Assembly: GCF_013167455.1 (NCBI RefSeq)
Contig: NZ_CP038328.1
Source of the DNA: Escherichia coli O157:H7
Lineage (GTDB): Bacteria; Pseudomonadota; Gammaproteobacteria; Enterobacterales; Enterobacteriaceae
Reading direction: 5' to 3' (one strand)
Length of the DNA: 64,000 bases
Shown here piece after piece: positions 36,001 to 39,000 of the stretch. Each line of letters opens with the position of its first letter. Within the stretch, counting starts at the first letter, position 1. The position numbers were made by a program.

Positions 36001-39000
36001 ATGCTGGTTTTTACCTGATGAAACAAGCCTGACGACCTTTCAAATTTTATTCTGATTTTACGATCAATAGCTCGTTTTTTATCCGGTAGTAAGTCGCTCG
36101 GCTGATTCCTGCTGCCTTCATGATGAGTTCAGGTTTTACTCCTTGCTCCAACATCTCTCTAACGATCTCTCGGGCTTCCTGATTTTTCGCCCTCCCAATG
36201 TATATGCCTTCGCTTTTAGCTCGTTCAATGCCTTGCTGTTGGCGTTTACGGCGTGTTTCGTAATCCTGCCGTGCCATTGTGGCAAGGATATCAATCAACA
36301 TGGCATTTACGGCTCTCAGGATGCCGCTGGTTAGATCATTGCCTGCCATCTCGACCATCTGCCAGCTCGTTGGTAAATCCATTGATACGATGATTAACCC
36401 TTTTCGGTTGAGCGTATCTTTCAGTTCGACCCATGCACTATGTTCTAGGCGACTCAGACGATCTATAGCTTCCACTAGCAACAGATCGCCGGACTGGGCT
36501 TCAGACAATAGCCGCATAAGCTCTACGCGCTCAAGCTTCGCCCCGCTAGCATTTTCTATATACTCTCCTGCAATCTGCCAGCCTTTTGATTTTGAAAATT
36601 CACGTAGGCTGGTAAGTGCTCGATCAGCGTGTTGCCCCTCAGTTGATGCTCGGCAGTAAATTCTAACGTTCATTGCATTGTCTCAAAAGGGTTGTGAATA
36701 TAAGTGCAAATGATACATAATGCAGTTTGTGTAGTCAAAATGTTCCTATACAACCCTATTGAGACTTTGTATCACCTTGTCATTACGGTATACCCAATTG
36801 AGACAATGATAACGGCTGGTGTTTAAGGTGATATATTGAGCTAGCCGAAAGAAACAGCCCGACACCGTTTTTACCGTATGAGATAATTTGTTGTGCTGGT
36901 GGGGTTGCTTGCCAGTACTTGGAATGGTACAAATCTGTACCATTGTTCGACGGTCTATTAACAAGGAGTGTTAAGATGGAAAAAGACCTGAAAGAGTTGC
37001 GGGAATACCTATTACTTTCCCCCGTCTATTCTGAAATTAACGATTGTCTGGCTAGTCTCTCAATGGAAGACGTGACCAATGAAGAGTTCGCGGAACGTTT
37101 GGGAATTGCTCCTGATTGGATGGATGCTATAGATACTAGCCAACTTGCTTAAGAAAGGATGCGCCATTGCTGGGCGCGTTTCTCATTTCTCCCGTAGCAC
37201 TACGCATACCTTCTAATAAATTTCACCATCAAAATCAGTAGATTGATAAAATGTCACTCAAATCTGTCATAAGTATCACAATTTTTAAACCTAATTGAAA
37301 TATAATGTTATTAGATATTATCTAATGGAGGTAGTTTAATGTCTTATGCGTTGATTGATAATGCTTCGTTAACAGCAGTCGAAAGAACACTGGGTGATAT
37401 TCTTGTTAAGAATCCAGATACTATTAACGGAGATTTAGTCGCTTTTGAAAATCTTATTCAAGCGATACTTTTTTACGATACCCTGATCTGTGTAGATAAT
37501 TATAAAAAAGAATATAGAGATAAACGCATTGCTAAATTTGACTTTATTAAATTTGTATCTGAAAGTGATTTTCAACTCAGTGAACTTGATCAGTTAGCAC
37601 AAGTTGAATCTCGGCAAATTACTTCCGAAATTAGAGGTGGGGAGTTTGTTGACGATGATTTTAGGCAACTTGTAGAGATGCTTAAGCTGAATATGATTTG
37701 CACATGGGATCTTCGGTCTAGCGTGTATTACTTAACAATGAAAATGCTTGGTCAGCCCGGTACTCCTGAATATGCGAAATATAGTGAACTAAGTGCATCG
37801 ATTTTTAATGAATTATCAGATGCTTCTGATACGAAAGGGTACTGGTCAACCGATGTGAAGCTAGTGAGTTCATCTGGACATGAATATACTGAGCGTGAAT
37901 TTGAACTAGAAAGGGAAAAATCTACTCGCGGTAAAGGAGGTATGACTCGTTCACTTGAAATGTTTATCGCATCGCTAAATTGGTTGGCATATAAATCTAT
38001 TTATTACAGCGTCATTGCTAAGCATTTTAAAGCAGACTCATTTATTCATCCAATAAGGCATGCATATCAATTGCATTGGATGAAAAAAACAGGTGCTTTT
38101 GGTCATGATTATACTGCAAGGTTGGTGCAATCGTTGTCTGATAAAATCAGTACTGCAAGATCTGAAATTGTAGATCATGGACGCACATCTACTATTTCAT
38201 TAGATTTACCAATATTTTCTGCATGGCTAGCAAACGAAACAGGAAATGTCTCTCAAGTTATCAATTCAGCTTTAGAGCTTAGAACACATGATCATTTTCG
38301 TACGTGTCGAGATGTAATCCGAGAGATTCATGTGACCTACGATGAATCGGGGATAAGTGCAGGAAATAAAAAAGTAACAAAATTACTAAGTGATTTAGAT
38401 AAAATATCTGGAGATATTAAACGAAGCTACGGTGTTCCATCAAATCAAGGTATTCAAGGCAGTTTTTTGATAAAATGTATAAATTCATTGACAGGACTCG
38501 TGGGTATTCCAGGTTTGCCTGATAAAGAGTTTGCACTGAGCACTCCTGAATTTATGAAGTCTAAACAACATAAAGCATTTTCTACCGTTTTCAAGGATGT
38601 TACTAACGAACTAACAAGCATTGAACGTTTAGGTGGGCTTCGGGATAAATTAGCGTCGAACTTTACTATTGATGATTCTTATTATACCGAGCCAAAAACA
38701 GAGGATCCGAGATTCCGTTACGTAAGTAGTAATTGGAAGCAGCCAATGTAGATATAGTTAAATGTATAATTATAAGTAATAACAATTTACAGACATTATT
38801 GAATTAAAAATATTGCGTTAGGGTATAATATCTAACGCAATTAGATTGAAAAGTTAATTAAATAGTTAGTCAGAGCTAACTTCTTGTATTGTTAGTTACA
38901 CTGCCTAACCTACAGACAAAAAGCCCCTCAGAATTGTGCTTACGCGCTCAAATTTCACTGCTGGGGATTTTTACGTACATTCAACCCAAAAAGTGACCAA

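Follow-up and report, generated by a model that had tools for sequence, protein, structure and literature searches.

Anti-phage defence borne on integron cassettes has been shown experimentally (bioRxiv 10.1101/2024.07.02.601686; 10.64898/2026.03.17.712381), and the passages of these two preprints considered here cite the cassette systems of Darracq et al. 2025, Kieffer et al. 2025 and Getz et al. 2025. The P4/P2 hotspots and the accessory regions of phage-inducible chromosomal islands (PICI) consist of a conserved backbone around one slot, in which the genes vary between strains and are mostly unannotated. PDC-S06 is a defence candidate consisting of a single large gene for an ABC-type ATPase. 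Here we compare with these systems a gene for a protein of 470 amino acids (aa) that occupies the slot of an integrative element at the tRNA gene argW in Escherichia coli O157:H7. The gene lies in a stretch of 64,000 nucleotides (nt) of the chromosome (contig NZ_CP038328.1), the whole of which is referred to as the window; positions 36700-39100 of it match many O157 genomes at 100% identity.

Like the cassette systems, the 470-aa family is found in chromosomal integrons, namely those of Vibrio, Stutzerimonas, Alteromonas and Nitrosomonas, where attC sites enclose it as a cassette of one gene. It differs from them in that the gene, at 1.4 kb, is long for a cassette, and the protein is not among the systems named in those passages. 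The argW element shares with the P4/P2 hotspots and PICI the arrangement of a conserved backbone around one variable slot, whereas its backbone carries a rolling-circle replication protein (Rep; PF23343) and a terminal serine recombinase and no packaging genes. PDC-S06 occupies the same argW slot in E. coli GPEC1337 and was found directly upstream of a homologue of the 470-aa gene in Pseudomonas sp. UFMG81 (E = 2e-262). Each of the two is a single large gene, but their sequences are unrelated, PDC-S06 being an ATPase and the 470-aa protein having no NTPase motif.

A defence role for the 470-aa gene is, in our judgement, plausible and has the better part of the probability. The explanation as a whole, in which the gene is an autonomous mobile single-gene cargo and most likely encodes a one-protein sensor-plus-effector anti-phage defence, we hold to be slightly better than an even bet.

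The 470-aa gene and its family

An earlier note on the window had described a foreign, AT-rich open reading frame (ORF) of 470 codons with a strong ribosome-binding site, and these features were recovered: GGAGG at 37327-37331 precedes the ATG by 7 nt, and the G+C (GC) content is 0.35-0.37 over 37000-38999 against ~0.45-0.52 in both flanks. The coordinates of the features are collected in Table 1. The predicted product has a mass of 53 kDa and an isoelectric point (pI) of 5.9, and its hydrophobicity never reaches transmembrane strength; it is predicted to be soluble.

The word "orphan" that was applied to the ORF has to be withdrawn, as it belongs to a conserved family with hundreds of homologues across Proteobacteria, Firmicutes and Chloroflexi. 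A word-indexed search returned 233 homologues, the best 120 of which are 54-100% identical to the query, nearly all of them 466-475 aa long, and come from Dickeya, Vibrio, Salmonella, Shewanella, Pseudomonas/Stutzerimonas, Aeromonas, Undibacterium, Chromobacterium and many metagenomes; the close homologues in other genera share 54-86% identity. When 1.84 billion representatives were searched exhaustively with a profile, 316 clusters were obtained at E <= 1e-3, with full-length members of ~440-485 aa, and no other domain architecture was observed among the 150 clusters listed. The distant members (21-38% identity) were found in Clostridium, Blautia, Sinanaerobacter, Kouleothrix, Acinetobacter, Halomonas, Hyphomonas and Sphingomonas. 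Walking outwards from the 15 most divergent members led to further proteins of ~470 aa without Pfam domains and to no annotated relatives.

The ratio of non-synonymous to synonymous substitution rates (dN/dS) between the E. coli gene and its orthologues is 0.10 for Dickeya, 0.10 for Salmonella and 0.07 for V. vulnificus. With these ratios and hundreds of full-length homologues, the ORF is judged to be a real gene, far beyond chance. The GC content of the gene was 36-40% in every host examined (six loci). Stutzerimonas, Aeromonas and Dickeya are GC-rich genera. Because the range holds in all hosts, the low GC content is a property of the gene family and not the mark of a recent single donor. 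Low dN/dS together with constant GC content is, on the comparisons made, what marks a gene as highly mobile and subject to strong purifying selection.

Within E. coli the gene was found in 316 of 5,426 complete genomes, each time at >=99% identity, and the carriers among the listed genomes are all O157:H7 or O55:H7. The match covers at least 80% of the gene length in 315 of the 316; in O55:H7 strain DEC5B it covers only 79%. In strain MA11 (NZ_CP040314.1), IS1203 is inserted within the 2.4-kb region.

Neither the 470-aa protein nor any of 79 diverse family members matched a Pfam family, and the protein itself gave no match in NCBIfam and none among PDB sequences, whether searched as a single sequence or as a profile. 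No mention of its accession, WP_000119352, was found in the literature. As far as tested, the family is undescribed: it has no domain and no PADLOC model, and the two integron preprints, in the passages considered, do not count it with the defence systems carried on cassettes.

The cargo slot of the argW element

The earlier note had placed the gene in an island at argW with a serine recombinase on one side, and both landmarks are present, the recombinase being followed outwards by the csc sucrose genes. The left flank of the gene (recombinase and a 58-aa ORF) and the right flank (~38902 through a minus-strand ORF of 215-231 aa) were searched separately against the 5,426 complete E. coli genomes, and each was found in ~545 of them, ~200 at 90-95% identity, which places the element in about 10% of complete genomes. 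About 200 other E. coli genomes retain both flanks at 90-95% identity around other inserts. The gene is foreign, as the earlier note had held, and lies in a mobile-element slot that gathers variable cargo, and we regard the 470-aa gene, on the evidence of these alignments, as swappable cargo of a decayed integrative element.

Intact elements of ~9-11 kb were found in strains EC0026B, GPEC1337, NMBU-W10C18 and 24AR0142. They begin at the tRNA-Arg gene with a tyrosine integrase, a 238-251-aa protein, an AlpA-like helix-turn-helix (HTH) regulator or excisionase and small ORFs, and continue with a second HTH protein, a 128-aa protein, Rep, the cargo slot, the 58-aa ORF and the serine recombinase, beyond which lie core genes (dsdC or csc). 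Rep is 350 aa long in GPEC1337 and 24AR0142 and is annotated as shorter in the other strains. The slot held at least six types of insert over nine sampled genomes (Table 1). PADLOC, NCBIfam and Pfam gave no identity for two of these alternative cargos, namely the HNH protein and the pair of 821-aa and 330-aa proteins.

The minus-strand ORF downstream of the 470-aa gene had been called a truncated relaxase. It is truncated, but it is a Rep and not a relaxase, because it equals residues 136-350 of the intact protein, in which the Rep ORF2/G2P rolling-circle domain PF23343 was recognized (E = 3e-6) and the match to Relaxase is weak. Rep and relaxase families have related nuclease domains. As the O157 copy begins at residue 136, it lacks the greater part of the Rep ORF2/G2P nuclease domain (residues 85-146), and this ORF is the broken inner edge of the element in O157. 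No phage relative of the Rep was found by tblastn against the phage collection, and no described element of the argW type was found in a comparison that consisted of this search and a PHROGs scan of the backbone, with no targeted literature search. The argW element looks like an undescribed hotspot for defence genes.

The O157 cargo measures ~1.7 kb, as given by the points at which backbone similarity stops and resumes (Table 1), and comprises, in order, an AT-rich leader of 124 nt, the gene itself and a 3' part of ~150 nt with a perfect 10-bp hairpin that is partly conserved in the Dickeya copy. The hairpin is enclosed by a foldable palindromic stretch at 38775-38898 which folds better than shuffled sequence (z = -3.45). 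This stretch has TAACAA at its start and TTGTTA at its end and is reminiscent of an attC site. The palindrome could mark an integron-cassette origin of the E. coli insert; it did not align with the Vibrio and Alteromonas attC sites, and only its inner hairpin is common with the Dickeya copy. An Rfam scan of 35500-40500 found no RNA families.

Integron cassettes and defence islands

To locate attC sites at the homologous loci, families of repeats were detected and hairpins were sought with relaxed criteria. In the V. vulnificus superintegron, attC repeats lie directly before (9852-9975 of the locus) and after (11432-11553) the homologue, and in a Stutzerimonas integron the homologue is flanked by attC sites at 9905-9979 and ~11403-11465 with intI adjacent. 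Hairpins resembling attC were also found 3' of the gene in Alteromonas and at two Nitrosomonas loci, the latter with an intI fragment upstream of the homologue, and AFDB holds a protein of an S. stutzeri integron, 'ORF467', at 70% identity. A single ORF between attC sites was thus observed for homologues and not for the E. coli copy, which has the attC-like palindrome only.

The survey of homologue neighbourhoods that the earlier note had proposed revealed both mobile and defence contexts. Twelve Pfam-annotated neighbourhoods comprise four defence or conflict islands, two integron arrays, two loci adjoining toxin-antitoxin genes and four lone insertions. The islands are those of Salmonella (CP4-57-like, with AbiGi, TerB_N/BrxC-D/helicase and Mrr), V. 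tasmaniensis (bounded by an integrase, with SEFIR/TIR, DUF87+SIR2 and AbiH), P. fluorescens (AbiTii, an MbcA-type antitoxin and a PIN_8 protein) and P. moorei (MComp1/CTD4/SMC_N/metallo-β-lactamase). Toxin-antitoxin genes adjoin the homologues in Halomonas (ParDE) and Blautia (HipA). When a PADLOC scan was extended to 20 further immediate neighbours, the matches, besides PDC-S06 in strain UFMG81, were a type II nicking endonuclease near the homologue of a Nitrosomonadales metagenome-assembled genome and weak matches of TIR-like, DUF3800-like and helicase type. Proximity to recognised defence genes recurs in unrelated genomes, in what is a qualitative survey and not an enrichment statistic, and the pattern is the one expected of a defence gene.

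Unannotated ORFs of ~210-250 aa adjoin the homologue in V. tasmaniensis (locus L053, 6117-6866 and 8506-9231), Salmonella (L016, 9570-10256) and P. moorei (L014, 9652-10290). Clustering of such neighbours, which excluded the V. tasmaniensis locus, placed those of Salmonella and P. moorei in no family common to three or more loci.

Predicted structure and conserved residues

An AlphaFold (AF2) model built from the 79 diverse homologues reached a predicted local distance difference test score (pLDDT) of 84 and a predicted template-modelling score (pTM) of 0.87; an earlier run with 41 close homologues had given a pLDDT of 62. The conservation of residues was read from the same 79 sequences, which diverge down to 21% identity. 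Most of the conserved polar residues of the family are held by an N-terminal Rossmann-like α/β domain. D7 stands right after β1 in the motif hhIDN[AS]TL and is present in all sequences that are ungapped at that column (97% of the 79), while the positions of D32 and E37 are acidic in 100% of the sequences (D32 is invariant), that of D47 in 95% and that of D53 in 92%. R16, G19 and R63 are invariant or nearly so, and outside the N-terminal domain P238, R240, P291 and R324 are invariant.

The statement in the earlier note that no catalytic motif could be assigned is softened by these five conserved N-terminal acidic residues and by the best structural matches of the model, which are PIN nucleases, if weak ones. 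By its sequence the hhIDN[AS]TL motif resembles PIN motif I. No PIN-clan profile (PF01850 and relatives) matched the query, nor any of the 79 members at E <= 0.1, and hhalign against a 117-sequence VapC alignment returned probabilities of 0.2-1.2%, whether the full protein, its N-terminal or C-terminal part or a spliced version was used. A discontinuous PIN domain was considered and rejected: the best local match in hhalign paired residues 421-435 (VTNELTSIERLGGLR) with residues 113-127 of Shigella VapC (VTNNTREFERVGGLR), and residues 1-116 or 1-118 spliced to the C-terminal segment gave a probability of 0.3% against the VapC alignment. Since the probability is this low and neither T422 nor N423 is conserved in the family, the pairing is coincidental. 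The conserved carboxylates on a PIN-like scaffold, together with the conserved arginines, suggest a metal-dependent phosphodiesterase or nuclease, as far as a predicted model can indicate.

Function and alternative explanations

From the occurrence of its relatives in integron cassettes and defence islands, we infer that the 470-aa protein is most likely a self-sufficient anti-phage protein. The gene would move between bacteria as single-gene cargo, taking the form of an integron cassette, a defence-island gene or, in O157:H7, an insert in the argW slot. Its N-terminal PIN-like domain would coordinate metal through the acidic cluster (D7, D32, E37, D47 and D53) and cut nucleic acid or a nucleotide, and the remaining ~330 residues, with P238, R240, P291 and R324, would suppress the activity until a sign of infection is perceived. 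Such a single-chain sensor-effector under auto-inhibition, in which a PIN-like nuclease head is joined to a regulatory body to which no fold was assigned, is a tentative proposal drawn from the model, and we give it rather less than an even chance.

Several observations weigh against this reading. In four of the twelve annotated neighbourhoods the gene is inserted by itself between housekeeping genes (Dickeya, Aeromonas after recD, Acinetobacter and Shewanella), and PDC-S06 is itself a predicted defence gene. No family of PADLOC-DB v2.0.0 matches the 470-aa protein at E <= 1, and as no PADLOC model exists for it, published guilt-by-association screens have missed the family. In the proposed head, the candidate positions of PIN motifs III and IV are only partly acidic (D105 67%, D107 57% and D124 76%). 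The note's description of the gene as a candidate undescribed defence gene remains a fair reading, because the gene is foreign, lies in a cargo slot, has homologues in integrons and defence islands and belongs to no known family; its putative role in defence is what the contexts point to.

The strongest competitor is an accessory protein outside defence that aids the host or the element, such as an anti-defence factor, an enzyme of stress response or DNA metabolism, or a nucleotide-modifying enzyme, in which case the presence of the gene in slots and integrons would merely reflect the portability of any single gene. The repeated adjacency to recognised defence genes in unrelated genera, and the defence candidate found as alternative cargo of the same E. 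coli slot, speak against such a protein. Moreover, no PP-loop or other HUP nucleotide-binding motif follows β1, where IDNASL is found instead, and 470 aa is large for an anti-defence protein. We consider this explanation unlikely, while leaving it an appreciable share of the probability.

A smaller share goes to a defence protein that is not a PIN-type nuclease and would be either a nucleic-acid binder similar to ZorC (EH-signature-like) or an enzyme with a new fold and new chemistry. ZorC, the EH-signature protein of type I Zorya, is comparable in size to the 470-aa protein, and one AFDB entry labelled as ZorC/EH-domain matched over the whole length with Foldseek (E = 2e-15; template-modelling score, TM, 0.56). 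This match to one entry so labelled is the sole link to ZorC. EH_Signature (PF15611) was not matched by Pfam in any of the 79 members, hhalign against the ZorC of E. coli E24377A returned a probability of 0.95%, and no neighbours of MotA/ExbB type, as linkage to ZorA/ZorB would imply, were found in the Pfam-annotated loci. A relationship to ZorC by sequence was rejected, as both Pfam and hhalign were negative. This explanation as a whole appears improbable to us. In E24377A, type I Zorya (zorABCD) lies in the thrW island (299412-318276) beside a type I restriction-modification system, a DUF4268 protein and a UvrD-like helicase.

The earlier note had also raised a two-gene module formed with the 58-aa ORF, for instance a toxin and an acidic antitoxin or inhibitor. 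The small ORF is as it was described, acidic (pI 4.05), with its own ribosome-binding site (AAGGAG, 7 nt upstream) and an end 186 nt before the 470-aa ORF. The pair lies side by side in the same orientation, with separate ribosome-binding sites, and a small acidic protein could in principle mimic nucleic acid. A four-way DNA alignment showed, however, that the 58-aa ORF and its terminator hairpin, which separates the two genes, belong to the backbone, the ORF being kept at ~92% DNA identity beside four unrelated cargos. At homologous loci elsewhere it is absent, or the small ORFs upstream (DUF6979 in Dickeya, and those of Stutzerimonas and P. moorei) bear no relation to it or to one another, and in integrons the 470-aa gene stands alone between two attC sites. 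An all-against-all comparison of ORFs within ±10 kb at 30 loci found the 470-aa family in 30 of 30 and any other family in four or fewer, so that no adjacent family is shared as a conserved partner or antitoxin of the type II toxin-antitoxin kind would be. With the 58-aa ORF part of the element backbone and no neighbour conserved in the 30 loci, the module is refuted, and we attach next to no probability to it; as far as these comparisons go, the 470-aa protein acts on its own.

Least probable of all is that the gene belongs to a P22-like prophage, as a structural gene or a lysogenic-conversion moron: it lies in the predicted prophage Sp16 region at argW and carries a PHROG family (phrog_13435, to which no function is assigned there) and IMG/VR prophage calls, yet no homologue was found in 50,697 phage genomes, all four IMG/VR matches come from the O157 locus itself, the gene lying at a contig edge, the gene is part of another element with a recombinase and Rep backbone, and its homologues elsewhere lie outside prophages. 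As no phage genome has a homologue and the IMG/VR matches are confined to the O157 locus, phrog_13435 probably derives from the annotation of that locus as a prophage.

Other features of the locus

The P22-like remnant in O157 has, judging from the comparison with intact elements, replaced the integrase-proximal half of the argW element; it ends with intS at ~44281 and is context that has no part in the function of the 470-aa gene. One of its ORFs, 41812-42948 (+), is annotated as a 'phage DNA ejection protein' and is chimeric, with an N-terminal part of ~50% GC that resembles ejection proteins and a very hydrophobic C-terminal part of ~150 residues in DNA of 29% GC (42500-42999). Probably a deletion fused the ejection-protein part to a membrane-protein gene of the P22-like prophage, for which an acyltransferase would be our guess. 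In the interval between cscB and the recombinase, a 50-aa ORF (35529-35681, minus strand) is a DUF4942-domain fragment according to annotation in other strains and is probably the relic of another island at the junction.

Table 1. Features of the argW element and its surroundings in the window, and contents of the cargo slot in E. coli
Feature	Position	Strand	Remarks
Serine recombinase	36047-36673	-	Member of the resolvase/invertase family; located at the element's conserved end
58-aa acidic ORF (phrog_35119)	36976-37152	+	Element backbone; RefSeq: hypothetical protein
Terminator-like hairpin between the 58-aa ORF and the 470-aa gene	37157-37181	+	Conserved backbone
AT-rich leader/promoter region specific to the 470-aa cargo	37215-37338	+	Includes GGAGG; backbone similarity stops at ~37205-37215
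470-aa ORF	37339-38751	+	ORF call; RefSeq: hypothetical protein
3' end of the cargo insert	38752-38902	+	Backbone similarity to other E. coli restarts at ~38902-38936
Terminator-like perfect 10-bp inverted repeat	38812-38841	+	ATTGCGTTAG...CTAACGCAAT; 3' of the 470-aa stop codon
Truncated rolling-circle replication protein	39421-40116	-	Residues 136-350 of the intact 350-aa Rep
P22-like prophage remnant	40099-44280 (end approximate)		Tail-needle knob fragment, DUF2824 protein, DNA-transfer protein, chimeric ejection protein, intS
tRNA-Arg(CCT), argW	44442-44516	-	Integration site
Cargo in O157/O55:H7			470-aa gene
Cargo in EC0026B			HNH endonuclease, 395 aa
Cargo in STO_Bone2, NMBU-W10C18 and 24AR0142			Pair of 821-aa and 330-aa proteins
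Cargo in GPEC1337			858-aa ATPase; PADLOC PDC-S06, full-length match (E = 0)
Cargo in F829			ParA-like gene
Cargo in 2015C-4498			Small ORFs with insertion sequence (IS) elements

Significance

The kind of gene described here is familiar, a single-gene candidate defence protein found in mobile-element slots and integron cassettes, and such candidates are now numerous. As one of many, the 470-aa gene is a clean and tractable candidate throughout a major pathogen lineage, and the family makes an easy target for cloning and structure determination because it comprises a single gene with no known domain and conservation is high from Vibrio to Clostridia. The argW slot is a ready-made place in which to find further defence systems and may equal the gene in usefulness. 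If the gene does serve in defence, every O157:H7 and O55:H7 strain examined would carry an unlisted determinant of phage resistance, which would be relevant to the phage-based control of enterohaemorrhagic E. coli (EHEC) and to the spread of Stx and other phages in this lineage.

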